Origin: Minisyncoccota bacterium
GTDB lineage: Bacteria > Patescibacteriota > Minisyncoccia > Phycocordibacterales > UBA1550
Assembly (NCBI GenBank): GCA_028712595.1
Contig: JAQTPS010000002.1
Span: forward strand, 1 to 63,201
Length of the DNA: 63,201 nucleotides
Direction of reading: 5' to 3'
Position 1 is the stretch's first letter. Every line of letters begins with the position of its first letter. Position numbers and translations under genes: made by a program. Positions 29,670 through 58,021 of this stretch are shown here, piece by piece. Under the pieces are notes generated by a model. That model had not been told where the DNA came from, did not search any database, and saw nothing but the letters and a program-made list of their open reading frames with translations.

Positions 29670-29771
29670 AGAGGGGTGTGGAAAAATGTAAAACGAGACT
29701 ACCAAAAAACTGTTCTAGATGAGAACATAACATACGATACTATCTTTGTCAAATTTGTTTGGGTAAAATTA

Positions 29772-29806
29772 AAAGAGCCAAAACTTGTGATAAGTTTTGG
29801 CTCTTT
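29772..29806 (-). terminator. long perfect hairpin (14-bp stem), bidirectional terminator-like
   Basis: aaagagccaaaact / agttttggctcttt. Confidence 0.55.
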
Positions 29807-29822
29807 ATTTGGGACGATTATG

Positions 29823-30011
29823 CTAACCTTTCTCTTTTACCCTTTCAACTAGCCTGCTCAACGAATCGGAGGCGTCAACACAATTACCGTCCTCGTCGCG
29901 CGCCACAAACTTGTGGTCGCCAAGCAGAACCCCAAGGGGGCTAGGATCCGCCTTTTCGATACCATATTTATGATTATCTGTATAGACGGTGTCAACAACC
30001 TTGTTAGCCAT
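29823..30011 (-). CDS. hypothetical small protein (62 aa)
   Basis: ATG-initiated ORF, followed by the hairpin above. Confidence 0.4.
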   Translation of the reverse strand: MANKVVDTVYTDNHKYGIEKADPSPLGVLLGDHKFVARDEDGNCVDASDSLSRLVERVKEKG

Positions 30012-30184
30012 ATAGATATGGGGGAAAAATACAAAAACAATAGTACTCTGCCTTGGCCGATGTTGTAAAGATCAAGTTCTCTGCATAGGGCAAAGGTGGA
30101 GAAATGAATAATAGTTTCTATCTGAAACTAAACTATACAGTAACAAATGAACTTGTCAATGGTTACCCAATGGAAAAACATTGG

Positions 30185-42855: not shown

Positions 42856-43836
42856 TTAGTTTGCTATATATTTTTTGTTGATTCTAATCGAGACATAACC
42901 AAGCCCAATAAATATAAAACCAAGAACAATGAGAGAAATTGGCCAACCAACGGAATCTGCAAAATATTCGCTTGTGATATACGAAACATGGGCAATAAGG
43001 AAAATGGTGCTCACAACTAAAATGCTACGGCTTTTCATATACACCGACAAATAAAGACCTCCAATCACAAGAAGGAAGTAAACCATCTGCCATGGGACCG
43101 AATCGAACACCTGCGAAAACGCAGCACCAAGAAATCCAGCTATACCGAAAAAGTAAAGAATCCCAATAAGCTGTTTATTCCAGCCGTCACGGAAGGCATG
43201 CGCGAGTAAAAGATAGCTTGCGCCTATCGCCATAGTGAGATAAGCGTACAAATCCTTGAACATATAAGATTCGCCATCAACAATCGCTCCAACGACAAGA
43301 TAAACAAATGCTGTGCCGTTTGCTATCGCAAAAAAAGTCAAAATGGCATTTTTGTGAACATAGTTCAACAATAGATAAAACGCAAAGATAATTCCAAAGG
43401 TGATTGCAACTGGCCACAATGAGACAAAATCTGTATTAAGTTCAGAAAGGGTTACCATTGCTCCTCCGGGAATCAATACGCCCCCGATAAAATGGAAAAT
43501 TGCCCCAAGTTTCTCCTCTGGTTTATTTTTGAGCAACATCGAACCAAGGAAGGCAAAGAGAAAGCCGAGCCCCAGTGTAACCGAGATGCGCCCCAAAGAC
43601 CCTATGTCATACCAAATTTGACGAACAAAAAATACAATCCCAACAATCACGATAGCTGCGCCCAAAATATACAACATCTTTGTCACGGAAAAAGGTGTGG
43701 CATTTTTTGAATTTCCACCCACAATTTCTCTCTGTGCGTTAGTCGCAATGCCAAAACGACTTGCGACTTCTTCGCGACTTATCTCTCCTGTGCTTATTTT
43801 GGCAGAAAGCTCTTGTAACAATTGTTCTTTATTCAT
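42856..43836 (-). CDS. hypothetical polytopic membrane protein (326 aa)
   Basis: Soluble N-terminal helix, then about 9 TM segments. Confidence 0.5.
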   Translation of the reverse strand: MNKEQLLQELSAKISTGEISREEVASRFGIATNAQREIVGGNSKNATPFSVTKMLYILGAAIVIVGIVFFVRQIWYDIGSLGRISVTLGLGFLFAFLGSMLLKNKPEEKLGAIFHFIGGVLIPGGAMVTLSELNTDFVSLWPVAITFGIIFAFYLLLNYVHKNAILTFFAIANGTAFVYLVVGAIVDGESYMFKDLYAYLTMAIGASYLLLAHAFRDGWNKQLIGILYFFGIAGFLGAAFSQVFDSVPWQMVYFLLVIGGLYLSVYMKSRSILVVSTIFLIAHVSYITSEYFADSVGWPISLIVLGFIFIGLGYVSIRINKKYIAN

Positions 43837-43854
43837 AAAATAAATTTTTTATTA

Positions 43855-44442
43855 TTAATTTCTTCCAGGTAGCACCCATCCAATAAATTGAAAATTGTTT
43901 TGGTAATAATACTGATCGGTATTATTTATGAGGTTAATCTTGCTCCTACTTTTTCCTTTTGTAAGATAATAACCAAAGGAAGAGTATCCTCCATCAAAAG
44001 GGAAAAAGTCTCCACCGCTTCTATCATAGTAGCTCGAAACTGTAACACCGTCAGGAGATGTTAAAAGATTGCTAAGTGTCATCGCTTGCGCTTCAGTAAG
44101 TGTTATTTCCCTACTCTCATTCTTTTCTGTATCGTGTAAAAAGATTCGATCGGTATATTTTTCATTAAAATCCAAGATACCGTTTTTGTTGAGGTCTTGC
44201 GTCATGTCAACGGGGTTAACGACAAACTTATCGCCAGCAACTGAATATCGTTTTTGGAGATAACTGTCGCAACGGTACGAATAATAATTATTGCCATCGG
44301 TGCAAGCTGTGTATACAAAGTTGTATTTAGTGGAAAGGAAAAGCGATGGGAGATAAGTACTCAAAGCAACAACAACTATCAATACGATTGGTAATATAAA
44401 AGCAAGCAATATGGCGAAGTTTTTCTTTATAAATTCTTTCAT
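43855..44442 (-). CDS. hypothetical membrane-anchored extracytoplasmic protein (195 aa)
   Basis: N-terminal TM segment; Tyr/Asn-rich ectodomain. Confidence 0.45.
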   Translation of the reverse strand: MKEFIKKNFAILLAFILPIVLIVVVALSTYLPSLFLSTKYNFVYTACTDGNNYYSYRCDSYLQKRYSVAGDKFVVNPVDMTQDLNKNGILDFNEKYTDRIFLHDTEKNESREITLTEAQAMTLSNLLTSPDGVTVSSYYDRSGGDFFPFDGGYSSFGYYLTKGKSRSKINLINNTDQYYYQNNFQFIGWVLPGRN

Positions 44443-44528
44443 AGTTTAATTATACCACTATTTGACGGAGTAGTTAATCTTCTCAATACATGGCTCGACA
44501 ACCCTGTAATTAGGACGTTCTCCTGTCT

Positions 44529-47117
44529 CTATTGGTTACAACCATCAAAAAGACTTTGTTTTGCAAGCCATTTGTAAATTTTTTTCTCGTCCTTTTTCAA
44601 CCACAATATATTTGAATTAATCTTCTCAAGCGCTTGGAGAATAGTGCGGTCTGCGCTAGGAAGCGGATTCTCTTTGAAGAAAGTTTTTATATCGTCATGC
44701 ATCGATTTAAGTGTGTTGCGGTTGAGAACCGATACAATGGTTGACAACATATGGTTTCTTTTACCATATTCTTTTGTTATTTTTTTCCAATTTTTCTTTA
44801 TAAATTTCCAACCAAGAATACGGCCATACGGATTGATGAGCACGTACGCAAACCCGTATACCTTGTCCTGTAAACGAATATGGTCAGTCATAATAAATGC
44901 GAGTGCCTGCTTAAGGATTTTTCTGTCACGAGACGCCGTGAGCGCAAAGAACAGGCGGTCTTTTTCTTCGGGCATATTTTCTTTTTCACAAAGAGCCCTG
45001 ACTTCATCAAATTCTTTCTGACCACCATTCCGAACAATGCTTGCGTATATTAAACTGCGAAAATCTGCTCCGATTGGTTTGATTTTTCTATTTTTGAAAC
45101 GATTTTTTGCTTCTTCCACTACTTCGATATTCTCAAATGACGCCCCAGCGCTAAGAACAAGGATGCGTAAAAGCGCGTCGTTGTGTGGTTCTCCTTTTCG
45201 GGGCTCCCAGCCGACATAACTTATAATCTTCGACAAAATATTCTGCGCGTAAACTTTGAAAAGTTCATAGGATTTTGAACCGAATAAAAGATTATGGAGA
45301 GAAGCAAGCCCAGAAATGATTTCAACCCAAACAATATATTCTTTTTCATTTCTATAAGCCAAAAGCATTTCAAGCAAATAGACAACATCGGATTGTTCAG
45401 CTTCAGCAAGCGCAAATAAATCACGAATAATACCAAGTCTGTCTTGTGGTGTGAGCTTTTCTTCGGAAAGCGCTACTTTGAGCTTTGCCAAGAGATTACC
45501 GTCATACTGCGTGCGATACATTGAACCCTCAAAAGGATTAAGCTTTATGAAGGAGAGCGGAGCGGGTATTGAAATACTCTTTTTATCCATAAGCCCAAGT
45601 GATTCAACACCGTTTGAACTTATAAATGAAAGTGGTATCGGCCAAAGTGTTTTTTGTCCCGATTCCCTGGCGCTAACCCTGCTTGAAAAATACCGCTTTT
45701 GTGAAATATCCAACTTTTTACTTTTTTGATTGATTGACACAGAGACAAGCGGATAGCCCGACTTTTCTGTCCAGATTTCCATCATTTTTTTGACAGGTTT
45801 TTTGGAAATTTTTTCAAAAGCATCCCATAAATGGATAGTTCTCGTATTTTTGTAACTATGTTCTTTCAGATAGAAACGCAAGCCGTCACGAAAATCTTTT
45901 TCACCCAGATAGCTTGCAAGCATACCTATTACCGTAGCTCCCTTGCTGTAAGAAATAGCGTCAAACATTTCACAAATCTCGTCTGGGTTATGTATTTGAA
46001 CTTCTACAACGGGGTGAGTGTTTTTAAGCGCATCAAGCTTGAGCGAACGAGCGAGGTCGTCTGTCACAAATTTTTCCCAAATTTTCCATTCAGGGAAAAG
46101 CGTATCGATTACAATGTATGGCATGTACGACGCAAATCCTTCATTGAGCCAAAGGTCCGCCCACCATTCCATAGTGACTAAATTGCCAAACCACTGGTGT
46201 GTAATCTCGTGGACAATAACATTCGCAACACTTTCTCGCGCGGACGTAGAACTGTGTTCCTTGTCAACCAGAAGCAATTCTTCACGAAATGTTATGGCTC
46301 CCCAATTTTCCATTGCGCCAGCGGCAAAATCCGGAACTGCAATCAAATCAAGCGTATTGAGGGGGTATGGAATATCAAAATATTTTTCATAAAATTCCAA
46401 GGTACGAACTGCAACATCAAGCGCAAATTTCCCCTGCTCTTTTTTCCCAGGAACCGCGATAACTCGGACAAGGACGCCCGAGCTTGTTTTTTGCTCTAAC
46501 CATTCAAAATCACCAACAAGGAAAGCGAGAAGATATGTGGACATCTTCGGTGTCGGAGCGAAAGAGACGATTTCGAAACCAGCTCGATGCTTATTTGTTG
46601 CAACAGGCAAAGTGTTTGATACTGCGGTTTTATTTTTTGGAATAATCAAGTGCACTGCAAAAACTGCTTTCTGCGCTGGCTCGTCAAAACAAGGAATACA
46701 TCTACGCGCATCGGTCGCTTCAAACTGTGTTGCGGCCATAAAACGATTCTTCCCGCCCACCGCATACTTACTTTTATAAAAACCTCGCATATTATTTGCC
46801 AATATCCCAGAAAATTGAAGGTGAAGTCTTGTTTCACCTTTCTTTATTTGTTTTGAAAAGACGAATGTCGCTGTTTCTAATTCTTTGTCGTATAAAATTT
46901 TTTGTGCTTTTATTTTTTCTTTACCACACAAAAGATTGGCGCTCGTGATGTCTAAATCGTTTGAGTGCATGGTGATTTCTTTTACGTTTTTCTCCAGTTT
47001 AATCGTTATCGTTTCTTCCCCCTTAAAAGTATGAGCTTCAAGGTCTGGTTCAAGTGTAATTTCATAGTGGACCGGAAAAATATGTTTAGGCAGTCGTTCC
47101 GATTTATTTTTATCCAT
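44529..47117 (-). CDS. M1 family aminopeptidase (aminopeptidase N / ERAP-like, with an ERAP1-type C-terminal domain)
   Basis: GAMENWG and HEITHQWFGNLVTMEWWADLWLNEGFA (HExxH-18-E). Confidence 0.9.
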   Translation of the reverse strand: MDKNKSERLPKHIFPVHYEITLEPDLEAHTFKGEETITIKLEKNVKEITMHSNDLDITSANLLCGKEKIKAQKILYDKELETATFVFSKQIKKGETRLHLQFSGILANNMRGFYKSKYAVGGKNRFMAATQFEATDARRCIPCFDEPAQKAVFAVHLIIPKNKTAVSNTLPVATNKHRAGFEIVSFAPTPKMSTYLLAFLVGDFEWLEQKTSSGVLVRVIAVPGKKEQGKFALDVAVRTLEFYEKYFDIPYPLNTLDLIAVPDFAAGAMENWGAITFREELLLVDKEHSSTSARESVANVIVHEITHQWFGNLVTMEWWADLWLNEGFASYMPYIVIDTLFPEWKIWEKFVTDDLARSLKLDALKNTHPVVEVQIHNPDEICEMFDAISYSKGATVIGMLASYLGEKDFRDGLRFYLKEHSYKNTRTIHLWDAFEKISKKPVKKMMEIWTEKSGYPLVSVSINQKSKKLDISQKRYFSSRVSARESGQKTLWPIPLSFISSNGVESLGLMDKKSISIPAPLSFIKLNPFEGSMYRTQYDGNLLAKLKVALSEEKLTPQDRLGIIRDLFALAEAEQSDVVYLLEMLLAYRNEKEYIVWVEIISGLASLHNLLFGSKSYELFKVYAQNILSKIISYVGWEPRKGEPHNDALLRILVLSAGASFENIEVVEEAKNRFKNRKIKPIGADFRSLIYASIVRNGGQKEFDEVRALCEKENMPEEKDRLFFALTASRDRKILKQALAFIMTDHIRLQDKVYGFAYVLINPYGRILGWKFIKKNWKKITKEYGKRNHMLSTIVSVLNRNTLKSMHDDIKTFFKENPLPSADRTILQALEKINSNILWLKKDEKKIYKWLAKQSLFDGCNQ

Positions 47118-47170
47118 ATGTCTGGCACTATAACAGAAATCTCCATCTTGGGGAAATGCGCGAGTTTGTG

Positions 47171-47303
47171 TGGAACCAAGAGGATTCTCCTTCGACTAAA
47201 TTTTTGTCGTCACAAAAATTTGTCTAGGCACTGGCTCGCGGCCTTCGACAGCTTCCCCGACATCGCTCCGCCATTCGAATCCTCTACAAAAGCAAAACTT
47301 TTG
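47171..47303 (-). repeat. tRNA-linked structured module, Val copy (antisense tRNA segment - conserved core - hairpin - sense copy of the tRNA 3' end)
   Basis: See findings. Core 47222-47273, antisense T-arm copy 47274-47285, sense copy 47171-47187. Confidence 0.6.
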
Positions 47304-47377
47304 TGGATCCAAGAGGATTCGAACCTCTGACCTTTCGCGTGTGAAGCGAACGCTCTAACCAGCTGAGCTATGAATCC
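47304..47377 (-). tRNA. tRNA-Val (anticodon CAC), no encoded CCA
   Basis: Hand-folded cloverleaf: GGATTCA/TGGATCC acceptor, GCTC/GAGC D-stem, TTCGC-TTCACAC-GCGAA anticodon arm, AGAGG-TTCGAAT-CCTCT T-arm. Confidence 0.93.
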
Positions 47378-47426
47378 GTATTGAAATTTCCGCGGAAGCA
47401 TCCCATGCTTCCGGTTGAGAACAGTG

Positions 47427-47498
47427 TCGGGGTGCCGAGATTTGAACTCGGAGTCTCACGAACCCGAATCGCGCATGTTACCGTTACACTACACCCCG
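47427..47498 (-). tRNA. tRNA-Pro (anticodon CGG), no encoded CCA
   Basis: CGGGGTG/CACCCCG acceptor, CGCGA-TTCGGGT-TCGTG anticodon arm with G37, CCGAG-TTCAAAT-CTCGG T-arm. Confidence 0.9.
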
Positions 47499-47511
47499 AC
47501 ACTGTTCTCAA

Positions 47512-47548
47512 CCCCAAATCCCGCATGTTACCGTTACACTACGCCCCG
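47512..47548 (-). pseudogene. 5' half of a tRNA-Pro(UGG)-like gene (acceptor 5' strand through anticodon loop), with no 3' half
   Basis: 33/37 identity to the first 37 nt of the adjacent tRNA-Pro. The anticodon position reads TGG. No T-arm or CGCCCCG acceptor strand follows. Confidence 0.6.
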
Positions 47549-47659: not shown

Positions 47660-47998
47660 TTATGCAAGAGCAAACTTCTTGCTATTTTGTTCCATTCTCC
47701 AATTGTAGATTGCAGCTCCCTGCTCCCATATCTGGTCTAGTAGAATCTCGGCGCTTTTTTGCATATATTCGGTGATTTCTTCAGATGATTTGCGTTTTGC
47801 TAGGGCAAGACACTTTTTGATTATCTTGTCATCAAGTGGAATATTATCTCCTGTTTTTTCTTCCATAATTTTCGCCCACAAATGAGCGAAAATAACAACG
47901 CTGTGGTCATTTTTTTCTATCTGCGCAGAAATAAACCCTTCCATGCTTTTCAAACCTTGACGATACTTGATCTGTGGAAGTTTTACATGGTTTTCCAT
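47660..47998 (-). CDS. hypothetical protein (112 aa)
   Basis: ATG ORF with its own terminator; no recognisable domain. Confidence 0.45.
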   Translation of the reverse strand: MENHVKLPQIKYRQGLKSMEGFISAQIEKNDHSVVIFAHLWAKIMEEKTGDNIPLDDKIIKKCLALAKRKSSEEITEYMQKSAEILLDQIWEQGAAIYNWRMEQNSKKFALA

Positions 47999-49195: not shown

Positions 49196-49242
49196 AAAAC
49201 AAGGACTGTCCTTTCTAAATTCTTAAGGACAGACCTTGTTTT
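49196..49242. terminator. bidirectional hairpin between convergent genes
   Basis: 18-bp stem with one mismatch: aaaacaaggactgtcctt / aaggacagaccttgtttt. Confidence 0.55.
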
Positions 49243-50402
49243 TAGCGTTGTTTTTTAAAAGTTTTAGCAATTGCTTTTACCACCCCCTTATCAAAAGGTT
49301 TAGGCAGAATACAATCTACTGTCGGCTTTTTTACGCACGAAGCCAGGGCTTCGGCAGATTTTACGAACATTTTTTGTTCAAATTGCGGTATTTTGCTATC
49401 TAATATTCCACGGAAAATGCCGGGGAAACCGAGAACATTATTCAGTTGGTTGGGAAAATCTGAACGACCGGTTGCAACAATAAAAGCCCCAGCGCTTTTG
49501 GCTTCATCCGGCATAATCTCCGGAGTTGGATTAGCCAAGGCAAAAATTATCGGCTTTTCATTCATAGTCCTTACCATATCTTTAGAAAGTAAGCCGGCCT
49601 TGCTTACTCCAATAAAAATATCTCGTCCTTTTATGGCGTGAGCTAAATCACCAGAAATTTTTTCATAGTCGCCAGTTTTTTCTTTGATGAATTGAAGTAG
49701 CTTTTTCTTTTCATTATTCAAATCCGAACGATTTTCTGACACAATTCCCCTACTATCAACTACAATTATTTTTTTGAAACCGTACAGGGCAAGCATCTTT
49801 GCGATAGCTGTTCCCGCTGCTCCGACTCCATTTATTAAAATTTTAACGTCACCCTTGCCGATCTTTCTTAATTTCAAAGAATTTATCAAACCAGCCAAAA
49901 CCACCGTCGCAGTCCCGTGTTGGTCATCATGCATTACAGGAATATCCAATTCTTTTCTTAACCTCTCTTCTATTTCAAAACAACGTGGAGCAGAGATGTC
50001 TTCCAAATTAATACCACCAAAAACCGGAGCGATTTGTTTGACTGCCTTAATTATTTCTTCCGTATCTTGCGTGTCTAAACAAATTGGAAAAGCGTCCACG
50101 CCAGAAAATTCTTTGAACAAGAGCGCCTTGCCTTCCATCACCGGTATCGCCCCCAAAGCTCCTAAATTACCCAAGCCCAATACAGCCGAACCGTCAGAGA
50201 CAACGGCAACCATATTTTTCTTAACGGTGTAGTCGTAAACCTTCTTGTGGTCTTTGGCAATTTCAAGACAGACCCCTGCCACACCCGGGGTATAAGCCAA
50301 AGAAAGATCCTCCTTGTTTTTTACTGCGACCTTGCTTTTTATCTCAATTTTACCCGAATGCTTTTTATGCAAAGCCAGCGACTTAGTATATATATTTTTC
50401 AT
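49242..50402 (-). CDS. NAD(P)-dependent malic enzyme (short, single-module form)
   Basis: LSLAYTPGVAGVCLEI...VAVVSDGSAVLGLGNLGALGAIPVMEGKALLFKEF. Confidence 0.9.
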   Translation of the reverse strand: MKNIYTKSLALHKKHSGKIEIKSKVAVKNKEDLSLAYTPGVAGVCLEIAKDHKKVYDYTVKKNMVAVVSDGSAVLGLGNLGALGAIPVMEGKALLFKEFSGVDAFPICLDTQDTEEIIKAVKQIAPVFGGINLEDISAPRCFEIEERLRKELDIPVMHDDQHGTATVVLAGLINSLKLRKIGKGDVKILINGVGAAGTAIAKMLALYGFKKIIVVDSRGIVSENRSDLNNEKKKLLQFIKEKTGDYEKISGDLAHAIKGRDIFIGVSKAGLLSKDMVRTMNEKPIIFALANPTPEIMPDEAKSAGAFIVATGRSDFPNQLNNVLGFPGIFRGILDSKIPQFEQKMFVKSAEALASCVKKPTVDCILPKPFDKGVVKAIAKTFKKQR

Positions 50403-50419
50403 GTGGCAAAATTATACCA

Positions 50420-51607
50420 CTATTTTTTCTTATTTTTTCTCCAAATAACCAAAAATGAAGCGAGAAGAATAGCTATCATTATCCACGCGCCAGTATTCCA
50501 AGTTATTACACCATTTCCGAAAAAAGCAGAAGCAGCTTGGTTTGAATTGTCTACTGCATTATTGTTTGCCGTAACTCCCGTCGAAGATGCTTGGTTCCCC
50601 TCTCCGTTTTGATTGCCTGTTGGTTCTCCGACACGGAAAGTGTTTGCGCCCGGCACGGCTACTTCTCCTTGAGCCACTGGATTATTTTGTTCCTCGGTTG
50701 GTGTAGCGAGAGCAAGCGTTGGATTGGTTTCAATTGTACCGTCTTTTCTCAACATAAAAGTATGCTCGTAGCTCACCGTTGGCGGAGATGCTCGCGATAT
50801 GACTCTATAAGAATATATTTGCTCCGGCACGAGTCCGAGAAGTGTAACGGTATGGTATGTCACTTTTGTTAAATCTTGAGCCGTCCCCTGTGGATACCCA
50901 AAATTGTCTAGCGTGAGATTTAATACGTACGGGCCACCTGAAGCCAAGCCGTAAACAACCTGACTTGTCGAAAGCAAGTTTGTATTCCAAGTTACAACCG
51001 CGCTATTCGTCTGTGGTGGCAAAGTGCTGTTTATGGACTCGTCACTTATAACAAGATATTTTGGGCCGATAATTATTGGTCCACCGCCAGCGCCTCCACC
51101 CACAGGATTTTGTTTGCCGACGGACACAGTTGTATCATCAACCACTACATCGAGGTCCTCAAAACCTATTTGAAGGTTAAAACCCATCGTGCTGTTTTGA
51201 TATTCATCGCCTGCCGTAGTTTTGAAAGTAGCGGTAAAGTCAAACTGCACCGATGAATTTGCCGGCACTTGCGGTAAGACTATTTCCGGTTTGCTAAACA
51301 AATCAGAGAAAGTATCGTCGTATAAAATCGTACTGTCTTGCTTTATTACAAGTCCTACGACACTTTTCAAATCCCCTGTGTTGCTTACATTAATAGTGCG
51401 CAAAATGGCGCGATGCGGAACTCCAGTCGTGTTGTTTAGTTTTACCCACTTGGTAACAGAATCACCCGGAACAAAATTCACACTGTTAAAAAGCGGACTT
51501 TGCTCAAATTGAACGGTCGACGCCTGTGCATTTGCCGGGCTGAAAGAACTCGCAAAAACCGTTGCTAGCAATGTTAGATATATTAAATTTTTAGTGATTT
51601 TATTCAT
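50420..51607 (-). CDS. exported protein: AxA signal peptide, TasA/camelysin-like N-domain, Gly linker, Fn3-like domain, C-terminal TM anchor + KKK
   Basis: SPANAQAS cleavage-like site, FVPGDSVTKWVKLNNTTG, VVTWNTNLLSTSQVVYG, and C-terminal WIMIAILLASFLVIWRKNKKK. Confidence 0.55.
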   Translation of the reverse strand: MNKITKNLIYLTLLATVFASSFSPANAQASTVQFEQSPLFNSVNFVPGDSVTKWVKLNNTTGVPHRAILRTINVSNTGDLKSVVGLVIKQDSTILYDDTFSDLFSKPEIVLPQVPANSSVQFDFTATFKTTAGDEYQNSTMGFNLQIGFEDLDVVVDDTTVSVGKQNPVGGGAGGGPIIIGPKYLVISDESINSTLPPQTNSAVVTWNTNLLSTSQVVYGLASGGPYVLNLTLDNFGYPQGTAQDLTKVTYHTVTLLGLVPEQIYSYRVISRASPPTVSYEHTFMLRKDGTIETNPTLALATPTEEQNNPVAQGEVAVPGANTFRVGEPTGNQNGEGNQASSTGVTANNNAVDNSNQAASAFFGNGVITWNTGAWIMIAILLASFLVIWRKNKKK

Positions 51608-51613
51608 GGTGAT

Positions 51614-53035
51614 TTATGGGGTTACGGGTGCTTCCGCTACGGCAGGCGTTTCTACCACAACCGCTGGCTCTGGTTCCGGAACGACTACCGGCTCAACCAC
51701 GGAAACAGGCTCTACGACAGGAGAATCGGGCTCTGCGATAGTCTCCTCTGTGGCTGTTGGTTCAACAATTGGAGCTACTGGTTCTGTTTCTGGAATCGCC
51801 TCGTCTTCTTGCGACGAAGAAGGGTCAACTGTCGGTGGTGTAGCCTCCGGAGGAGCCGAGATGCTTTCATCTGCATCAATCTGTTCAGGTATTGCGGGAG
51901 GAAGTGTGTCGTCGGGCACAACCTCATCAGTTGGTGGGTTTTGAACATCTGGAGGCGCGATCACTTCCGCCCCACCGCCACCCGTCGTCGCATCAGGCAA
52001 AGCATTCACCACTACTTCTTCTACTTTGTTTGACGTTCCAGGTGTTGGTATTGGATCAACCCAAGCTCCCACGCCATCAGGAATTCTAGCGTAAGAAAAT
52101 CCTTCTGGTTTTTCTGTGGTCCAAGAGTAGGAATCAACCAAAACTCCACCAAGACTAATTCTATTCGTAAACAATCTAATGCTATCCGCATCATTATTTA
52201 GAATAAAGTCACCATCGCCATTGCGGTAAACCACAAGGAATCCATGAGAAGCTATTGTGGTGCCACTGCCAGTGTGCGCATTATCCACCGGCACTTCTCC
52301 AACATCAGTAGAATCATAAATATACCAACCGTTCAGATCGAAGCTGACGTTGCTGTTGTTGTAAAGTTCCACCCATTCACCTCCCGGCATTGGCGCATCG
52401 TCTAGTCCAGTCGGATTTGGTAATACTTCGTTTAGTACCACCGCTTTGCCGATTCGAATAGAGCCCAGTTTTTCCTTTACGCTCGAAAAACCGGTGGACG
52501 AATTTGGTAAATCACCTTGCCAAGCTGTATAAGTCCATTTGAAGAAACAGGTTTTCCCCCACACGCTGGGCGGAGTGCTTGGGGCAACCGTAAAACCGAA
52601 ATTCCAAGCAGTGTTTGTTGTTGAGGTCGCGGTGGAAGTAAAATCTTTTATGAGTCCCGTGTAAGTGCTCGTCGGGCTGGTTGCAGTCATTGTGACATAG
52701 TCGCAAGCTGACACGTTGGCGCCAGAAAGTGTGGTTTTCGCAATATATTGAGAACCTAAACTGCCGGTATTTGAAATATTTATTGAAGTAGAAGTGCTGT
52801 CCGTCGGATACAACAAATCCGAATTAAAGGCGGTTGTAGAATCCATACCCAGAGTCAGAGTTCCCGCGGTTAAAGTATTTCCAACGGAGGACTCTGTATC
52901 ACTATAATATGCGACAGTTTCATTGACATTCAGAACGCCAGAGAAAATTGAGACGACAACCAAAACTGCTAACAATTTAGAAAATTGTTTTTTACTCCAA
53001 AAAAGATATTTACTGTTGTTCTGTAACATTTTCAT
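51614..53035 (-). CDS. exported protein: SipW-type signal, TasA-like N-domain, lamin-tail (LTD) domain, Pro/Glu/Val-rich tail
   Basis: VAYYSDTESSVGNTLTAGTL, VVLNEVLPNPTGLDDAPMPGGEWVELYN (LTD), and C-terminal PVVEPVSVVEPVVVPEPEPAVV. Confidence 0.6.
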   Translation of the reverse strand: MKMLQNNSKYLFWSKKQFSKLLAVLVVVSIFSGVLNVNETVAYYSDTESSVGNTLTAGTLTLGMDSTTAFNSDLLYPTDSTSTSINISNTGSLGSQYIAKTTLSGANVSACDYVTMTATSPTSTYTGLIKDFTSTATSTTNTAWNFGFTVAPSTPPSVWGKTCFFKWTYTAWQGDLPNSSTGFSSVKEKLGSIRIGKAVVLNEVLPNPTGLDDAPMPGGEWVELYNNSNVSFDLNGWYIYDSTDVGEVPVDNAHTGSGTTIASHGFLVVYRNGDGDFILNNDADSIRLFTNRISLGGVLVDSYSWTTEKPEGFSYARIPDGVGAWVDPIPTPGTSNKVEEVVVNALPDATTGGGGAEVIAPPDVQNPPTDEVVPDDTLPPAIPEQIDADESISAPPEATPPTVDPSSSQEDEAIPETEPVAPIVEPTATEETIAEPDSPVVEPVSVVEPVVVPEPEPAVVVETPAVAEAPVTP

Positions 53036-53573
53036 CTTTTTTTAATGCAACCTTTCCTTCCCTCATTTTTTTAATTTCCTTGATGATTTTTTGTATTTCA
53101 TCATAAACGATGATGACTGCCGGAATAACTATCACGAGCATCAAACCAACCGGCTTCTTCAAAAAATCCACAATGTACCCGAGAAATGGTATTGAAAAAT
53201 AAACCTTGCCCAAAACTTCTTTTTGCGAAACTTCCTTGCTGTCTTCGGAATTGTTGGCGTCGCCTCTTGTTTTGTAAACAATCTCGCCACTTACCGCTTT
53301 CATTTCTGCGATACGATGAGTGGTTGGAATTTCGGTTTTTGTATTTTTTCCGAAAGTTATAACATCCCCAATCTTATAATCAGAAATTGGTTTAATTATC
53401 ACCACACTTCCGGTATGAATGGTTGGCTCCATAGATCCGGACAGCACCGAAAGCACCTTGATATTGCCCGTAATTGGAAAAACAGAAACTATAAGCAAAG
53501 ACGCAAAAAATAATATTGCGATGAGTGCTATGTAGTAAATTGTTTTGAAGGTTTTTTGCATAGGGTACGTCAA
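53010..53573 (-). CDS. sipW: signal peptidase I, SipW/archaeal-ER type (S26B)
   Basis: LSGSMEPTIHTGSVVII...THRI...TRGDANN, plus a C-terminal TM segment. Confidence 0.8.
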   Translation of the reverse strand: MTYPMQKTFKTIYYIALIAILFFASLLIVSVFPITGNIKVLSVLSGSMEPTIHTGSVVIIKPISDYKIGDVITFGKNTKTEIPTTHRIAEMKAVSGEIVYKTRGDANNSEDSKEVSQKEVLGKVYFSIPFLGYIVDFLKKPVGLMLVIVIPAVIIVYDEIQKIIKEIKKMREGKVALKKDENVTEQQ

Positions 53574-53639
53574 AACTTAACTCAAAACCCCCATACTCAA
53601 TCCCTCTTGTTAGAGAGATTGAGAAGCGAGATTCGAAGT

Positions 53640-54317
53640 TTATTCTGTCACTCCACCACTGCCACCAACCTGTTCAAGAGAGGTGAGAACATCAAAACCT
53701 AGGGTATCTGTCTGTATGATATTTTGATTATATGCTGGATAAGTCCATGCTGTTGGAAGTTGCCACATAACAACTAGATCAACAGATTGATCAGCTGTCA
53801 TTGTCATTATATCGTTCCATCCTGTTAGCATATTGCTCACACTAGTGTAGTGAAAGTCACCACCCCAGAATCCTGGATAAATTGCTTTTTGTCCGCCATA
53901 GGCAAGCTGATAATCTCCGGCGTCAAAAACTCCATTTCTGTTCACATCGAGATAAGCGGCAATCACAAATGATAAATCCAAATCACCTCCGTTGTCATAG
54001 TCGCCAGCTTTTATTTCTGGATCAGTCAGAGGACCACCTTCAGATTGAACCATATTTGCGATTTTTACATCCAAATCACCATTCAAACTGCCTGTAGCGT
54101 TTGTCAGAGTAACTTTGCCTGTGCCAGATTGACCAGGATAAAGATTTGCAACGCTAAATGGAATTGGATTGCCAGCACCAAGCACTAAGTCCAATTTCCC
54201 AGCACTAAAGGTATTTCCTGTTGATGTCTCCGTATCCGAGAAGTAAGCGCGAGTTGCGCCGACTGCTCCGATGGCGACGGCTGCGATAACACTCAAGCTT
54301 AAGATAATTCTTTTCAT
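53640..54317 (-). CDS. TasA/CalY (camelysin, peptidase M73-like) family exported protein
   Basis: ATRAYFSDTETSTGNTFSAGKLDL SipW-type N-terminus, and LYPGQSG...VTLTNATGSL. Confidence 0.7.
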   Translation of the reverse strand: MKRIILSLSVIAAVAIGAVGATRAYFSDTETSTGNTFSAGKLDLVLGAGNPIPFSVANLYPGQSGTGKVTLTNATGSLNGDLDVKIANMVQSEGGPLTDPEIKAGDYDNGGDLDLSFVIAAYLDVNRNGVFDAGDYQLAYGGQKAIYPGFWGGDFHYTSVSNMLTGWNDIMTMTADQSVDLVVMWQLPTAWTYPAYNQNIIQTDTLGFDVLTSLEQVGGSGGVTE

Positions 54318-54334
54318 AGTTTATTTCTTAATTA

Positions 54335-54838
54335 TTATTGTTGAACAGCATCAAAGGTAACACCCAAGTTGCCACTCAATCCCTGATAGCCGTTTCCAGC
54401 ACCTGCAGGGAAAGTAATGTCTACTTCACCTGCGTCACTAGCGTCAGTACCACCAACTGCTGACAAAGCTTCGGTAGTAGTGGCTACACCATCAACTCTA
54501 ACCGCACTGACAACTGGCGCATTTGGATTTTGTAACCCGGAAGTAGCTAGATCTTCATCAACTGACATAATAGCCCCACTAAGTGCTGTTGAAACAGTGT
54601 AATTAAGTGGCAAAGATCCTACATTGTTAACATTAAGAGTTAACGTTTTTACATCGCCCGGTTTCATATTTGTAACATCGGTTGTATAAGTAGCTGTACC
54701 AAGTGTTATATCCAAAGTTCCAGCTGTAAACGTATTTCCTGTGGATGTCTCTGTATCCGAGAAGTAAGCGCGAGTTGCGCCGACTGCTCCGATGGCGACG
54801 GCTGCGATAACACTCAAACTCAAAAGAATTCTTTTCAT
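54335..54838 (-). CDS. TasA/CalY-like exported protein, short paralog
   Basis: The first 38 residues match the neighbouring paralog except at positions 4-5 (II vs IL). MKPGDVKTLTLNVNNVGSLPL. Confidence 0.65.
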   Translation of the reverse strand: MKRILLSLSVIAAVAIGAVGATRAYFSDTETSTGNTFTAGTLDITLGTATYTTDVTNMKPGDVKTLTLNVNNVGSLPLNYTVSTALSGAIMSVDEDLATSGLQNPNAPVVSAVRVDGVATTTEALSAVGGTDASDAGEVDITFPAGAGNGYQGLSGNLGVTFDAVQQ

Positions 54839-54906
54839 ATTTTTACTTTATTTCTAAACTAATTAATTTCTAATAATATTCACCTGATAAAACTTTTCTA
54901 CTTTAC

Positions 54907-54943: not shown

Positions 54944-55314
54944 TAATGAACTATCTTCATAAAACTTCGCTCTCGCAAGTTAGTTTTATCTGCATATAAA
55001 TATATACCATACCTGTAGGGTGTCAATCGAAAATAGCGTTTGTTCTCTTTATTTTTTGCTGGTTTTGTCGCTCCCCTCGCACGAGGACTTTACAATAGTT
55101 GTGGACTGTGTTTCGGTACCAAACTAGCCCCTTATTTTGATGCGTTTTCTATCGGACATTCAGATGTCCGATAGAAAGTCAATCTGGGAAGGACGGTCCT
55201 TCCCAGATTTCGGGAGAGAGAATCTCCTTCGAGTAAATTCCTCGACGCAAAGCAAGCAATTGCTTTGCTACTATCTTGTGTGGTCACAAGTTACTAAATT
55301 TTGCCGTCAAAGAA

Positions 55315-55461
55315 GCCGGGAGAGAGAATCTCCCGCGACTCAAAGTTCGTCGTCACTCACTTTGGTCTGGGCACTGCCTCGTCTGTTTCGCAAGCTTGCG
55401 AAACATGACTGCGGCATTCGATTCTCTACGCAAGACGCACCAGCGTCTTGCTCTCCCGGCA
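55315..55461 (-). repeat. tRNA-linked structured module, Leu copy
   Basis: See findings. Antisense copy 55417-55461 (split by a hairpin), core 55366-55416, sense copy 55315-55330. An extra sense copy lies at 55211-55224. Confidence 0.58.
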
Positions 55462-55476
55462 CAAAAACGCGAACCC

Positions 55477-55504
55477 AAAAAGAGTGGACTGCTCCACTCT
55501 TTTT
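55477..55504 (-). terminator. hairpin terminator right after tRNA-Leu
   Basis: agagtgga/tccactct stem extended by an A5/T5 tract. Confidence 0.55.
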
Positions 55505-55512
55505 CGTTTTTG

Positions 55513-55594
55513 TGCCGGGAGAGAGAATCGAACTCTCATGGATTACTCCGCACGATTTTGAGTCGTGTGCGTCTACCAATTCCGCCATCCCGGC
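55513..55594 (-). tRNA. tRNA-Leu (anticodon CAA), long variable arm, no encoded CCA
   Basis: GCCGGGA/TCCCGGC acceptor, CACGA-CTCAAAA-TCGTG anticodon arm, 13-nt variable arm, GAGAG-TTCGATT-CTCTC T-arm. Confidence 0.93.
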
Positions 55595-55679: not shown

Positions 55680-56645
55680 ATGAACAAAATCAGGGTGGGC
55701 GTAATGCGTGGAGGACTTGGTGGAGAATATTATGTATCGCTCAAAACAGGAGCCAATGTTCTCGCAAACTTGCCAAGATATCGTTATGAACCGCACGACA
55801 TACTCATAACAAATATGGGCGAGTGGAACATAGACGGCATTCCCACATCTCCGTCAAAACTTATGCAACGTGTTGACGTTGTTTTTAATGCTCTTCACGG
55901 TGAGTTTGGTGAAGACGGTAAAGTGCAAACTATTCTCGAACGTCACAATGTTCCTTACACCGGCTCGGCTCCTCTCGCGTCAGCTATTGGTATGAACAAA
56001 GAGCTTGCGAAGAAATATTTTTCTTCGGTTGGCATAAAAGTGCCTCGTGGCGTTGTGGTGTCGCGAGGAGAAGAAGTGGGCGAAGTTGTGGACAAAGTTA
56101 CAGCCGAAATAAAAGCTCCCTACGTTGTGAAGCCACTTACTGGTGGATCGTCAATCGGACTTTCTTTCGTGCAAGCAGAAAAAGAACTTGTGCCTGCAAT
56201 AGAGACCGCGCTCGCGCATTCCGAAAAAGCTCTCATTGAAGAGTATGTGCACGGGCGTGAAATTACTGTCGGAGTTATTGATTCGGGGAATGATGAAATT
56301 GCGTATGTGACACCACCGATGGAAGTGCTCCTTTCTTCTGGAGTTCTTTTTGATTACAACAAAAAATACCGCGACGCTAAACATCCAGTAGGTCCTGCTC
56401 GTATGAACGAAGCGGAGCGCAAATCAATCGAGGAAGTAGCGCTTCTTGCGCACAAAAAACTTGGAATCCGCCACTATGCAGAATATGATTTTATCTTGAC
56501 CGAGAATGGTCCATACCTACTCGAAGTCAATACGCTTCCAGCCCTTACAGAAACTTCGTTACTCAAGAAATCTCTTGACTTGCATGGTTTGTCATTCCCG
56601 GATTTTCTTGATTACGTGTTGACACTTGCATTACGGAAAAAATAA
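55680..56645 (+). CDS. ddl: D-alanine--D-alanine ligase
   Basis: ORF 55665..56645, ATG at 55680. FNALHGEFGEDGKVQ, VVKPLTGGSSIG, and EVNTLPALT. Confidence 0.92.
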   Translation: MNKIRVGVMRGGLGGEYYVSLKTGANVLANLPRYRYEPHDILITNMGEWNIDGIPTSPSKLMQRVDVVFNALHGEFGEDGKVQTILERHNVPYTGSAPLASAIGMNKELAKKYFSSVGIKVPRGVVVSRGEEVGEVVDKVTAEIKAPYVVKPLTGGSSIGLSFVQAEKELVPAIETALAHSEKALIEEYVHGREITVGVIDSGNDEIAYVTPPMEVLLSSGVLFDYNKKYRDAKHPVGPARMNEAERKSIEEVALLAHKKLGIRHYAEYDFILTENGPYLLEVNTLPALTETSLLKKSLDLHGLSFPDFLDYVLTLALRKK

Positions 56646-56683
56646 GGTAGAATATCGAAACAAGGGCTAAATACCCTTTAGTT

Positions 56684-56757
56684 GGGCCCGTAGCTCATTT
56701 GGCTAGAGCGCCTGTTTTGCACTCAGGAGGTAAGGAGTTCGACTCTCCTCGGGTCCA
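56684..56757 (+). tRNA. tRNA-Ala (anticodon TGC), G3:U70 present, no encoded CCA
   Basis: GGGCCCG/CGGGTCC acceptor with G3-T70, anticodon loop TTTGCAC, AGGAG-TTCGACT-CTCCT T-arm. Confidence 0.93.
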
Positions 56758-56760
56758 CAT

Positions 56761-56802
56761 CAAACAAAAAAGCCGGAGAATCATCTCCGGCTTTTTTGTT
56801 TG
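56761..56802 (+). terminator. rho-independent terminator (19-bp perfect stem, bidirectional shape)
   Basis: caaacaaaaaagccggaga / tctccggcttttttgtttg with loop atca. Confidence 0.7.
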
Positions 56803-56812
56803 ACTATTGGTT

Positions 56813-57073
56813 CCTCGAGGAGAGTCGAATGGCGGAACGATGCCGAGCAAGCTTGCGAGGCCGTGAGCCAGTGCCCAGCCCGAGCCGAGTGGCGACGAGG
56901 CGAGAGGCGCGGGCGACTCTCCTCGGGTGGCGAGCCAGTGCCCAGAGTTTCTCGAGCGACGGCGAGAGAAAACTCGAGGGCAAGAAATAAAAGAGTACAC
57001 CACTAAAACCGTGAGCCAGTGCCCAGCCCGAGCCAAGTGGCGACGAGGCGAGAGTCGCGGGCGACTCTCCTCG
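56813..57073 (+). repeat. tRNA-linked structured module, Ala copies (one full unit 56813-56928 plus a second rearranged unit; 65-nt direct repeat 56861-56925 / 57009-57073)
   Basis: See findings. G+C-rich, and carries the same core as the Val and Leu loci. Confidence 0.6.
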
Positions 57074-57091
57074 AGCTTTCTGTTTTCCCAT

Positions 57092-57119
57092 TTGCCAATT
57101 TTCCCCATTTGTTTAGTAT
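57092..57119 (+). promoter_or_regulatory. promoter, -35 TTGCCA / 16 nt / -10 TAGTAT, 8 nt before ATG 57128
   Basis: Hexamers read directly. Confidence 0.4.
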
Positions 57120-57127
57120 CTATACTA

Positions 57128-58021
57128 ATGACCCCCAAACTCCTCGTAATCCTCGGCCCAACCGCCTCAGGCAAAAGCGACCTTGCTGTGGAAATAGCAA
57201 AGCTCGTTAACGGTGAAGTCGTTAGCGCCGATTCTCGTCAGGTATACAAAAAACTTGACCTAGGAACTGGAAAAATAACAAAGCGTGAAATGCGTGGCGT
57301 TCCCCACCACCTACTCGATGTCACCAACGCGAAAAAAAGATTTTCAGTAGCAGAGTATCAACTCCTAGCAACAAAAGTAATCACAGCTATTATAAAACGC
57401 GGAAAAATCCCAATCCTCTGCGGAGGCACAGGTTTTTATATTGAATCAATCGTAAAAGGAACAGTTATTCCTGAAGTTATCGAGAACAAATCTCTCCGCA
57501 AAAAGCTTGCCGGAAAAAGCGCCAAGGAACTTTTCGGAATTTTATCAAAGCTAGACCCAAAACGAGCTGAAGAAATTGATGCAAAAAATCCTGTGCGTTT
57601 GATCCGCGCGATTGAAATTGCAAAAGAGCTTGGGGCTGTTCCACGCCTCGCAAAAGAATCTTCCAATTATGAGATTTTGCAGATAGGTATTGCGGTTGAC
57701 CGCGAAACCCTGCTTAAAAGGATTACTGCTCGTCTCCACAAACGACTAAAGCTCGGAATGATTGCCGAATCAAAGCAACTTCACAAAGAAGGGCTATCGT
57801 GGAAACGAATGCACGAGCTTGGACTTGAATATCGCTATATGTCAGAATTTTTGACAAACAAAATTACAAAAAGCGAACTTGAACAGGAAGTAATAAAAGG
57901 AAGTATGGATTATGCGAAGCGTCAGATGACATGGTGGAAGAGAGACAAAAGTATAAAATGGTTTCCGCTTGAACAAAAACCGAAAATATTGAAAGAGGTC
58001 AAAAAATTCCTTAATCTTTAA
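57128..58021 (+). CDS. miaA: tRNA dimethylallyltransferase
   Basis: ILGPTASGKSDLAVEIA (P-loop) and VSADSRQVYKKLDLGTGK. The ORF-track start 56927 runs through the repeat region and is not credible. Confidence 0.92.
   Translation: MTPKLLVILGPTASGKSDLAVEIAKLVNGEVVSADSRQVYKKLDLGTGKITKREMRGVPHHLLDVTNAKKRFSVAEYQLLATKVITAIIKRGKIPILCGGTGFYIESIVKGTVIPEVIENKSLRKKLAGKSAKELFGILSKLDPKRAEEIDAKNPVRLIRAIEIAKELGAVPRLAKESSNYEILQIGIAVDRETLLKRITARLHKRLKLGMIAESKQLHKEGLSWKRMHELGLEYRYMSEFLTNKITKSELEQEVIKGSMDYAKRQMTWWKRDKSIKWFPLEQKPKILKEVKKFLNL

Follow-up and report, generated by a model that had tools for sequence, protein, structure and literature searches.

A structured non-coding module at tRNA 3' flanks in Parcubacteria with arms that match the adjacent tRNA

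What kind of element lies behind the tRNA genes of a Minisyncoccota bacterium, and why do parts of it repeat the sequence of the very tRNA that it follows? The question is raised by a stretch of 63,201 nucleotides (contig JAQTPS010000002.1 of assembly GCA_028712595.1; hereafter the window, meaning the whole of this stretch) in which tRNA-Ala on the plus strand and tRNA-Val and tRNA-Leu on the minus strand are each followed by a compact, structured segment. A sequence-only reading of the window had described a constant scaffold bordered by segments that match the neighbouring tRNA, and all of the features it named, i.e., the arms and core at tRNA-Ala, a 65-nt repeat, and the minus-strand cores at tRNA-Val and tRNA-Leu, are present where it placed them. 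The analysis described here firmly shows that these segments belong to a family of structured non-coding modules that is strictly linked to the 3' flanks of tRNA genes, stands outside known families and has no linked enzyme gene. Equally firm are the derivation of the module arms from the resident tRNA, with which they co-vary, and the turnover and mosaicism of the module. In kind, the module is a structured non-coding repeat at gene ends; arms copied from the adjacent tRNA are an unusual property and, as far as could be found, an unreported one.

A covariance model, R1, was built solely from the three window copies (Ala, Val, Leu). In the window it matched these copies and a partial unit of the Ala array and nothing else, and its matches in other genomes, which are independent of the window, reached E values of 1e-14 to 1e-24. 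In the 232 kb of sequence searched there were 40 model matches in total, in about ten related Parcubacteria genomes and metagenome contigs. All 40 lie at most 420 nt downstream of a tRNA and on the strand of that tRNA, and together they follow at least 16 tRNA species; this downstream zone (up to 420 nt 3' of a tRNA, same strand) makes up 4.8% of the strand-positions searched. A match was present in the downstream zone of 36 of 53 tRNAs, with an occupancy of 8 of the 12 tRNAs seen in a 583-kb genome and of all three tRNA transcription units in the window. The constant scaffold with tRNA-matching segments that had been read from a single window thus represents a genuine family, which recurs in related genomes of the candidate phyla radiation (CPR) with every copy adjacent to a tRNA and co-oriented with it.

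The Ddl protein, encoded in the interval from tRNA-Leu to tRNA-Ala, served to fetch relatives. In the closest of them (Ddl 84% identical, 583-kb contig), modules follow tRNA-Pro, tRNA-Leu and tRNA-Ala, and four more distant relatives (Ddl about 70% identical) carry modules of a second subtype, type 2, at tRNA-Trp, tRNA-Leu, tRNA-Ala and tRNA-Val. A scan of 185,579 species genomes with a strict pattern revealed four true loci in three Parcubacteria metagenome-assembled genomes (MAGs), namely a Yonathbacteria, GW2011_GWA1_47_8 and one labelled Saccharibacteria. A fifth match, in a Pirellulales genome (L005), was due to chance, as it had neither a model match nor a tRNA. A looser pattern applied to metagenomes yielded 26 matches, half of which were true loci; the other 13 were chance matches in high-G+C coding DNA. 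Two pattern scans of viral contigs gave no match, and blastn searches of phages and plasmids returned nothing but trivial terminator-like matches. With Rfam 15 at gathering thresholds, only tRNA passed in the window; at E ≤ 10 over 56600-57150 the other matches overlapped the terminator hairpin or the tRNA, far below threshold, and none fell on the module. A type-2 copy searched against Rfam likewise gave tRNA only. The earlier statement that the segment is assignable to no RNA family is borne out by these searches. A literature search uncovered no described tRNA-linked motif and no RNA-guided tRNA-targeting recombinase specific to the module.

The module comprises about 115 non-coding bases, with a core of about 95 nt, and has a G+C content of 0.71 (Ala copy) compared with about 0.41 for the window. 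The Ala, Val and Leu copies each fold independently into the same three-way junction (z = -4.4, -2.4 and -4.6, respectively). The junction is closed by P1, in which an antisense arm pairs with a sense arm over 9-17 bp, depending on the copy; the order of the parts is P1, junction GAA, P2, junction GTG, P3 and the sense arm. The P2 consensus consists of a TGNC/GNCA outer helix, a GGA/GA internal loop, an AT bulge and a variable inner hairpin, and that of P3 of CCY/RGG, an A/GN loop, GAC/GTC, a bulged A, a variable stem and a GACG-type tip. RNAalifold applied to the three window sequences found double compensatory changes in 17 of 35 pairs. In an alignment of 27 matches, 22 of them distinct, 93.1% of the cells were paired and both-side changes occurred in 29 of the 35 pairs. 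The covariation score of 0.556 was reached in none of 500 shuffles (0.192) and fell to about 0.09 when the pairing partners were slid by 1-3 columns. The compensatory changes first noticed among the three cores are therefore part of a strong covariation signal, and the predicted fold of the module is real.

The fold is strand-symmetric, in that folding either strand with DNA parameters yields the mirror structure. The conserved unpaired bases are purine-rich (GAA, GGA/GA, GTG and the tandem GA beside the P3 tip), and about 75% of the copies are structurally intact. Among the strong matches there are, per 582 Watson-Crick cells, 11 G:T, 9 A:C and 11 G:A cells, such that wobble pairs are no commoner than other mismatches; from this lack of G:U enrichment it can be argued that the helices are made or kept at the level of DNA. 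Among known RNA structures, ribozymes of the hammerhead, hairpin and twister type were rejected because the junction sequences do not fit them and Rfam is silent, and a K-turn in P2 was rejected because it requires three bulged bases where one is present.

The relation of the module to its tRNA is seen most clearly at the Ala locus, whose parts are as follows:

56684-56758, plus strand: tRNA-Ala(TGC), called by ARAGORN and by Rfam (RF00005, 61 bits)
56738-56754, plus strand: T-loop, T-stem 3' strand and acceptor 3' strand of tRNA-Ala, the source of both module arms
56760-56803, plus strand: perfect palindromic terminator-like hairpin with 20-bp arms, a 4-nt loop, an A-tract and a T-tract (repeat and terminator scans)
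56804-56815, plus strand: probable degenerate antisense copy of the tRNA-Ala acceptor 3' strand, read from the sequence as ctattggttcct, where the perfect complement would be tgtggaccc
56816-56829, plus strand: antisense arm, the 5' strand of P1, cgaggagagtcgaa (14 nt exact)
56830-56870, plus strand: P2 arm, with a TGGC/GCCA outer helix, the conserved GGA/GA internal loop, an ACG/CGT helix, an AT bulge and an inner hairpin with an AAGCTT loop
56871-56913, plus strand: junction GTG, then the P3 arm with CCC/GGG, the conserved A/GN loop, a variable stem and the tip GAGTGGCGACGA
56914-56928, plus strand: sense arm, the 3' strand of P1, an exact 15-nt direct copy of tRNA-Ala 56740-56754 (T-loop C56 to acceptor position 70)
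56928-56980, plus strand: second Ala unit, internally deleted, with P2 collapsed to TGGC joined to GAGCCA, GTG-CCCAG and a P3 of its own, lacking a sense arm
57009-57075, plus strand: third Ala unit, 5'-truncated, consisting of the P2 3' strand, P3 and a sense arm at 57062-57075

The antisense arm at 56816-56829 is the exact reverse complement of tRNA-Ala 56738-56751, i.e., of the T-loop from T54 through the T-stem 3' strand plus 2 nt of the acceptor, and its last three bases form the junction GAA (J1/2). The terminator hairpin at 56760-56803 is the centre of a longer, imperfect palindrome that reaches from the tRNA-Ala T-loop to the antisense arm. In the Ala P3, the middle stem that is GAC/GTC in other copies is replaced. 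The unit at 56928-56980 lies between the two Ala units of the sequence-only reading, which had overlooked it; its P3, read from the sequence, is AGTTTCTCG/CGAGAGAAAACT with the tip AGCGACGG, followed by TCGAGGG. The stretch 57009-57073 repeats 56861-56925 at 97% identity, the model match on this third unit spans 56966-57080 (42.5 bits), and a direct-repeat scan found GAGCCAGTGCCCAG three times in the array.

The two minus-strand loci have the same layout:

47303-47498, minus strand: pair of tRNA-Pro(CGG) and tRNA-Val(CAC), the module coming after the last tRNA (Val)
47169-47286, minus strand: Val module (model match 47170-47286)
47274-47285, 47232-47273 and 47189-47228, minus strand: antisense arm (12 nt exact), P2 and, after GTG, P3 of the Val module
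47169-47187, minus strand: Val sense arm, 19 nt with 1 mismatch, extending 2 nt beyond the discriminator base
55512-55594, minus strand: tRNA-Leu(CAA), called by ARAGORN and Rfam
55451-55511, minus strand: Leu trailer and terminator hairpin (55477-55504), leading into an antisense copy of the trailer and acceptor 3' strand (55451-55469)
55431-55450, minus strand: hpX, an optional fourth hairpin, caagacgctggtgcgtcttg, between the antisense-acceptor and antisense-T-arm segments
55313-55430, minus strand: Leu module (model match 55313-55428)
55417-55427, 55375-55416 and 55332-55371, minus strand: antisense arm (11 nt exact), P2 (TGCC/GGCA, 9-bp inner stem) and, after GTG, P3 of the Leu module
55315-55330, minus strand: Leu sense arm, 16 nt exact
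55211-55314, minus strand: degenerate second Leu unit, with a truncated P3, then the tail of a type-2 P3, an hpX-like hairpin and the tail TCGAAGGAGA
55181-55209, minus strand: terminator-like hairpin closing the tRNA-Leu/module array (terminator scan)

At the Leu locus, 55451-55469 and 55505-55523 form a perfect 19-nt inverted repeat. Comparison with two loci of relatives (L031, L037) placed the 3' tail of a type-2 P3 (ACTTGTGACCACA) at 55279-55291 of the degenerate unit and the hpX-like hairpin at 55247-55268; the unit ends with a third copy of the tRNA-Leu 3' segment (55211-55224). At Ala and Leu a terminator-like hairpin separates the tRNA from the module, and another follows the Leu array; the terminator scan found none between tRNA-Val and its module, and the Val copy lacks an antisense acceptor segment. 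No promoter-like site was predicted for the window modules.

Beyond the window, the antisense arm of nearly every copy is the exact complement of the tRNA from T54 in the T-loop to T-stem position 64/65 (11-12 nt), and some arms continue through the acceptor strand into the trailer; in one gapped alignment, 25 of 29 antisense matches were exact over 10-16 nt. The left edge of the sense arm is fixed in the T-loop, at 56/57 in type 1 and at 55/56 in type 2, and its right edge varies from acceptor position 70 to as far as 22 nt into the trailer. Almost all copies have exact direct repeats of 12-29 nt (full range 7 to about 40 nt), spaced by 106-211 nt. With its fixed left and variable right edge the sense copy acts as an att-type direct repeat, as the sequence-only reading had supposed. 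The arms follow differences between the tRNAs of different genomes at T-loop positions 57, 59 and 60: tRNA-Ala has the T-loop TTCGACT, TTCGATT or TTCGAAT according to the genome, and the antisense arm reads AGTCGAA, AATCGAA or ATTCGAA, respectively; at tRNAs with A57 (Pro, and Leu in a relative) the arm carries TTGAA. Where the T-stem of the tRNA contains a G:U pair (G2 tRNA-Leu(TAG), G8 tRNA-Arg), the arm has A opposite T rather than the G of the tRNA. The arm is thus a perfect complement even at these positions, which indicates that it was templated from the 3' strand and rules out that it is a duplicate of the T-stem 5' strand.

In addition, a long palindrome that runs through the tRNA 3' end, the trailer, a loop, the antisense trailer and the antisense tRNA 3' end has the antisense arm as its outer end. 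Since this palindrome is centred on the terminator loop, the overall layout runs sense, antisense, sense: the first turn is a simple hairpin and the second the P2/P3 core. An extended, acceptor-like stem could form in several copies, by pairing of the sense copy with the antisense acceptor and antisense trailer. Many copies also contain hpX. Where present, it falls precisely on the 65/66 boundary that separates the antisense-acceptor from the antisense-T-stem segment, and the hpX hairpins found at different tRNAs in several genomes are homologous. The type-2 modules have the P1/P2/P3 architecture of type 1, with a different P3 (GGGGTCGAGAGTACTTA...TTAGTAACTCGTGACCG) and a sense arm that starts at C56; RNAalifold of eight type-2 copies gave the same junction, with compensatory changes in 13 of 29 pairs.

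The copies turn over among tRNA flanks, and their cores are mosaic. In one MAG the cores at tRNA-Val(GAC) and tRNA-Leu(TAG) are 98% identical and their arms wholly different, and the tRNA-Leu(TAG) locus of the same MAG contains an exact 178-nt tandem duplication. The module that follows tRNA-Val in the window follows tRNA-Pro in the closest relative. The Ala and Leu cores of these two genomes are not mutual nearest neighbours, the P2 of the relative's Ala copy resembles that of the window Leu copy, and nearest neighbours differ between P2 and P3. Arrays include truncated, internally deleted and mixed type-1/type-2 units. In a further relative the tRNA-Leu flank is empty and tRNA-Ala is followed by a core-less remnant. 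Two loci with an inverted copy and no core (L035 tRNA-Tyr, L029 tRNA-Ala) were considered as independent events and set aside, as they look like deletion remnants. In L029 the first 20 nt of tRNA-Ala are also copied (7626-7645) about 110 nt upstream of the intact tRNA-Ala whose downstream module is the core-less remnant. The terminator palindromes of two close relatives differ solely by symmetric double changes.

The Pfam scans of the window covered 59 open reading frames (ORFs), mostly housekeeping genes (several aminoacyl-tRNA synthetases, DnaK/DnaJ/GrpE, RpoA, Ddl, MiaA, PepN, YceG and others) with a few proteins that received no annotation; the neighbours of the modules are tRNAs, ddl, miaA, pepN and yceG. 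In these ORFs there was no integrase, transposase, recombinase, HUH nuclease, reverse transcriptase or Cas domain, nor a Y1_Tnp (RAYT) domain, and no OrfB_IS605, RuvC or HNH protein near the module. The gene tables of the relatives' loci L032-L037 contain no Phage_integrase or recombinase domain and likewise no transposase, HUH nuclease or Cas gene, and no reverse transcriptase domain was found near any module copy examined. IntI and other integrases are absent from the window; host Xer genes outside the window were not looked for. In a relative (L007, about 960-1440, minus strand), a short ORF between two tRNA-plus-module units resembles by eye the YraN/UPF0102 nucleases (PD-(D/E)xK, Holliday-junction-resolvase-like); a link between this ORF and the branched modules is speculative.

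How, then, did a constant core come to be framed by segments of so many different tRNAs? In the reading that we favour, with a probability of roughly 40%, the module is a lineage-restricted, multi-copy, non-autonomous but self-propagating cassette for tRNA 3' flanks in a Parcubacteria clade, with arms that template switching or gene conversion writes anew from the resident tRNA. Each unit would consist of constant parts, i.e., P2, P3, the conserved purine-rich junctions and bulges and, optionally, hpX, and of locus-specific parts, i.e., the complement of the resident tRNA 3' strand from T54 outward and a direct copy from 56/57 outward, paired with each other. The cassette would spread and be replaced among tRNA flanks as DNA through a factor encoded elsewhere, with the universally conserved and partly palindromic T-loop GTTCGA serving as junction or microhomology. 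The arms would not be guides carried from site to site; they would be re-copied from the resident tRNA gene, during replication by template switching or by gene conversion, to give the zigzag of tRNA 3' end, hairpin, inverted copy, core and direct copy. The conserved junction may be recognized by a trans-acting factor as a folded single strand, either RNA or single-stranded DNA, and the sense copy would keep the antisense arm paired such that it does not invade the upstream tRNA upon co-transcription. We infer that the cassette moves as DNA, that its arms arose by template switching and that a trans-acting factor recognizes it.

Template switching is an established route to reverse-complement arms, perfect stems and multi-base compensatory changes in a single event (PMC8794818). 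It would yield perfect Watson-Crick stems without wobble intermediates, and the module shares with template-switch hairpins the perfect reverse-complement arms, the one-step multi-base compensatory changes and the lack of G:U intermediates. It is, however, a mutational mechanism rather than an element and explains the arms and stems but not the conserved core or the restriction to tRNA flanks. The turnover (different occupied tRNAs, mosaic non-orthologous cores, tandem and truncated units) agrees with the first reading's suggestion of a miniature mobile element that targets tRNA 3' ends; the 63-kb window contains no recombinase, TnpB or IS110-type gene. Simple fold-back at the host terminator was rejected, since the tRNA is followed by a hairpin unlike the terminator that follows the sense copy. 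A copying stop at m1A58, in analogy to retroviral primer-binding sites, was rejected because both arms include the tRNA-specific base 57, and the IS91 target GTTC fits the type-1 edge (56/57) but fails at the type-2 edge (55/56).

The module shares single features with several known systems and lacks at least one defining feature of each. Among those closest to the favoured cassette, integron attC sites and CTXphi attP(+) have inverted target-like segments about 90 nt apart that fold into a mimic of the duplex target, as those of the module may do in single-stranded form; like the module, they conserve structure over sequence and occur in arrays, and the order expected for them (target copy, element, inverted arm, spacer, hybrid target copy) is that of the module. 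The order of the parts would fit integration of a folded single-stranded hairpin, by a possible analogy with CTXphi or integron cassettes. In contrast to these sites, the module alignment (A3) has no R/L boxes (R''/R' GTTRRRY) or dif-like XerC/D arms, its spacer is a conserved branched structure, its arms change with the target, and its single-stranded DNA form is hypothetical. REP/REPIN-RAYT systems and miniature inverted-repeat transposable elements (MITEs; Correia, RUP, ERIC, RPE) are, like the module, short, non-coding, multi-copy intergenic hairpin repeats that are non-autonomous, persist for long times and often lie at the 3' ends of transcription units. Unlike in MITEs, however, the inverted repeats of the module (the P1 arms) differ from locus to locus in accordance with the local tRNA, so that there are no shared terminal inverted repeats; there is also no target-site duplication of fixed length, and every copy lies at a tRNA 3' end. 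The constant palindrome of the 5' GTAG REP type is missing from the module alignment, and a RAYT or other transposase from the window.

Several observations weigh against the mobile cassette. Intact copies, two subtypes across genera and very high occupancy fit a selected function equally well, and the unpaired bases are purine-rich on the tRNA-sense strand, which is typical of functional RNAs. The constant hpX and core are interleaved with three tRNA-specific segments, an arrangement that is hard to obtain by a single simple template switch. Near-identical cores with different arms could result from gene conversion limited to the core, with no transposition. One G:T pair is conserved in the type-2 P2 arm. 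Finally, the 59 window ORFs offer no enzyme for the spread: an integrase or transposase is missing from them, as are HUH nucleases, reverse transcriptases and Cas proteins.

The strongest alternative, though a somewhat doubtful one, is that the module is a co-transcribed functional RNA domain of tRNA units that acts in protein binding, 3' processing, termination or stability. As variants, it may be processed by tRNA enzymes such as RNase P, RNase Z or the CCA-adding enzyme, in the manner of plant mitochondrial t-elements, or it may toggle between the tRNA 3' end and the sense copy. The strict tRNA orientation, the position inside the tRNA unit ahead of the final terminator and, at tRNA-Val, the absence of a terminator between tRNA and module are consistent with this role, as are the high occupancy, the persistence across genera of two subtypes with one architecture, the three-quarters of copies that are structurally intact and the conserved purine-rich bulges and junctions. 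Moreover, hpX lies at 65/66, where in a real tRNA the D/anticodon domain joins the acceptor/T minihelix, and long forms reproduce the upper, acceptor/T-stem half of the adjacent tRNA, several copies with an extended acceptor-like stem. The long forms in this respect resemble the t-elements of plant mitochondria, the tRNA-like domain of tmRNA and mascRNA, as they recreate a coaxial acceptor-plus-T-stem helix with an authentic 3' strand and discriminator base and place a side hairpin where the D/anticodon domain would branch. In contrast to these mimics, the module has the P2/P3 junction in place of a T-loop and takes its helix sequence from the adjacent tRNA; the window copies show either no acceptor pairing or a degenerate one, and neither ARAGORN nor Rfam recognizes the module as tRNA-like. 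The acceptor mimic is partial or absent in many intact copies (the Ala sense arm ends at position 70, an antisense acceptor is lacking in the Val copy), the module usually lies behind a strong terminator, a promoter-like site of its own is not predicted, and G:U pairs are not enriched over A:C. The module is also missing from some tRNAs and from orthologous tRNAs in relatives, its cores are shuffled between loci, and none of the functions named requires tRNA sequence in the stem.

It is unlikely, but would be the most far-reaching outcome, that the module is a self-retargeting system whose arms are rewritten by snap-back or template-jumping, and thus either a new class of mobile element of tRNA flanks or a per-tRNA guide RNA for a protein that acts at the T-arm/3' end of the cognate tRNA or tRNA gene. 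With retron msr-msd non-coding RNAs the module shares a closing inverted repeat (cf. a1/a2), without an adjacent reverse transcriptase gene.

A programmable guide-plus-scaffold RNA is less probable still. Its antisense segments (T-arm and, in long forms, the acceptor 3' strand) would steer the protein bound to the scaffold, be it a recombinase or an enzyme of modification or processing, to the transcript or the gene of the cognate tRNA, and the sense copy would be auto-inhibitory. A constant scaffold interleaved with up to three target-matching segments that are rewritten per tRNA, and cores of 98% identity with fully retargeted arms, speak for such an RNA and recall the IS110/IS1111 bridge RNA (seekRNA) and the TnpB/IscB omega-RNA, in which a constant structured scaffold likewise carries short DNA-target-matching segments that are rewritten between copies. 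The reading is weakened because the matching segments pair with each other, in a helix of 9-17 bp rather than in open loops. They cover the same tRNA positions (57-65 and beyond), such that P1 leaves no exposed internal-loop guides of the bridge RNA type, and the earlier proposal that the antisense copy is a target-recognition segment finds no support on this point. Nor do the other defining features of bridge RNA, seekRNA and omega-RNA apply: the module is not located in the end of an insertion sequence beside a DEDD/serine recombinase gene of the window, no tnpB or iscB is nearby, and the matching segments flank the scaffold on both sides instead of forming a single terminal guide. In addition, the T-arm and acceptor of a folded tRNA are poorly accessible as a target, the window ORFs include no candidate effector linked to the module, and G:U pairs are not enriched.

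That the modules are remnants of classical integrative elements of the tyrosine integrase type (prophages, integrative and conjugative or integrative and mobilizable elements), with the sense copy as attR and the core as an attP arm left after interior deletion, is very improbable given their constant small size and covarying core. As with the attL/attR of tRNA-targeting elements, the direct repeats of the tRNA 3' segment begin in the T-loop, the classical crossover zone of integrases, the tRNA gene remains intact, and tandem units and a host-like terminator after the distal repeat occur. The units, however, measure 130-200 nt and carry neither integrase nor cargo at all 40 sites, where no larger version was seen, and one family serves at least 16 tRNA species. 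Base-pair covariation in a three-way-junction interior is not expected of the duplex arm-type sites to which proteins bind, the extra inverted copy of the target (the antisense arm) is left unexplained, the right repeat edge is variable, and the phage, plasmid and viral collections hold no match. Least probable of all is that the modules are functionless by-products, i.e., inverted triplications of tRNA 3' ends made by template switching between T-arm and terminator palindromes: such an origin agrees with the sense-antisense-sense order, whose junctions coincide with two short inverted repeats, with Watson-Crick stems that are perfect and not enriched in wobble pairs, and with a known mechanism (PMC8794818), but it is largely refuted by the core of about 95 nt with its covarying stems and its junctions and bulges conserved across genera and subtypes, and it does not account for the homologous hpX hairpins at different tRNAs.

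Copies of tRNA segments are also found upstream of tRNA genes. In the window, tRNA-Pro(CGG) is flanked by a perfect 22-nt inverted repeat (47413-47434/47492-47513, minus strand), by which leader-trailer pairing extends the acceptor stem, and upstream of it lies an 86%-identical tRNA-Pro 5' half of the TGG type (anticodon-loop TTTGGGG; 47506-47548, minus strand). The closest relative has two such 5' halves (L032 8400-8480). These copies indicate that tRNA fragments accumulate on both sides of tRNA genes in this lineage. A second repeat family consists of terminator-like double palindromes built on AAGGACAGTCCTT at unrelated intergenic sites of the window (49196-49242 and 55181-55209) and of relatives that include the 583-kb one (L031 10639-10675; L032 738-750, 11421-11457 and 13031-13071).

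Compared with its closest relative (L032 7297-9593), the window contains two extra gene blocks, 42856-47117 and 49242-54838, which adjoin tRNA/module loci and whose far ends have no extra tRNA-fragment repeats. One block comprises DUF2157, a 195-aa ORF and a PepN-type aminopeptidase, the other malic enzyme, LTD and Pur_ac_phosph_N proteins, signal peptidase and three camelysin-like proteins. The latter are encoded by three neighbouring genes with an N-terminal Peptidase_M73 (camelysin-like) domain (51614-54838, minus strand), two of which are tandem paralogues with a 146-nt stretch of 88% identity (54177-54322, 54698-54843). Between tRNA-Pro and yceG, a 112-aa ORF (47660-47998, minus strand) has a weak, sub-threshold match to Tad4, a Thoeris inhibitor (E = 2e-4, 21.9 bits compared with a cut-off of 25). 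At 28953-30184, 1.2 kb contain no ORF of at least 100 aa and no Rfam match but only short minus-strand ORFs, one of which (29030-29314) encodes a cysteine-rich, zinc-ribbon-like protein of 94 aa.

If these conclusions hold, a genome-reduced CPR clade carries, behind most of its tRNA genes, a folded module that adopts the sequence of the neighbouring tRNA, and a well-supported family of structured nucleic acids that is absent from Rfam would be added to those known. The module would show in nature a constant scaffold whose target-matching arms are written at each locus, and its partner protein, once found, could point to a new activity in recombination, retro-copying or tRNA processing. It would also provide a case of how template switching writes and maintains perfect helices, with a bearing on the use of covariation as evidence of RNA function. 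Should it be merely a selfish repeat, it would still serve as a marker for annotation and strain typing and as a caveat for the prediction of tRNA fragments and att sites in CPR genomes.

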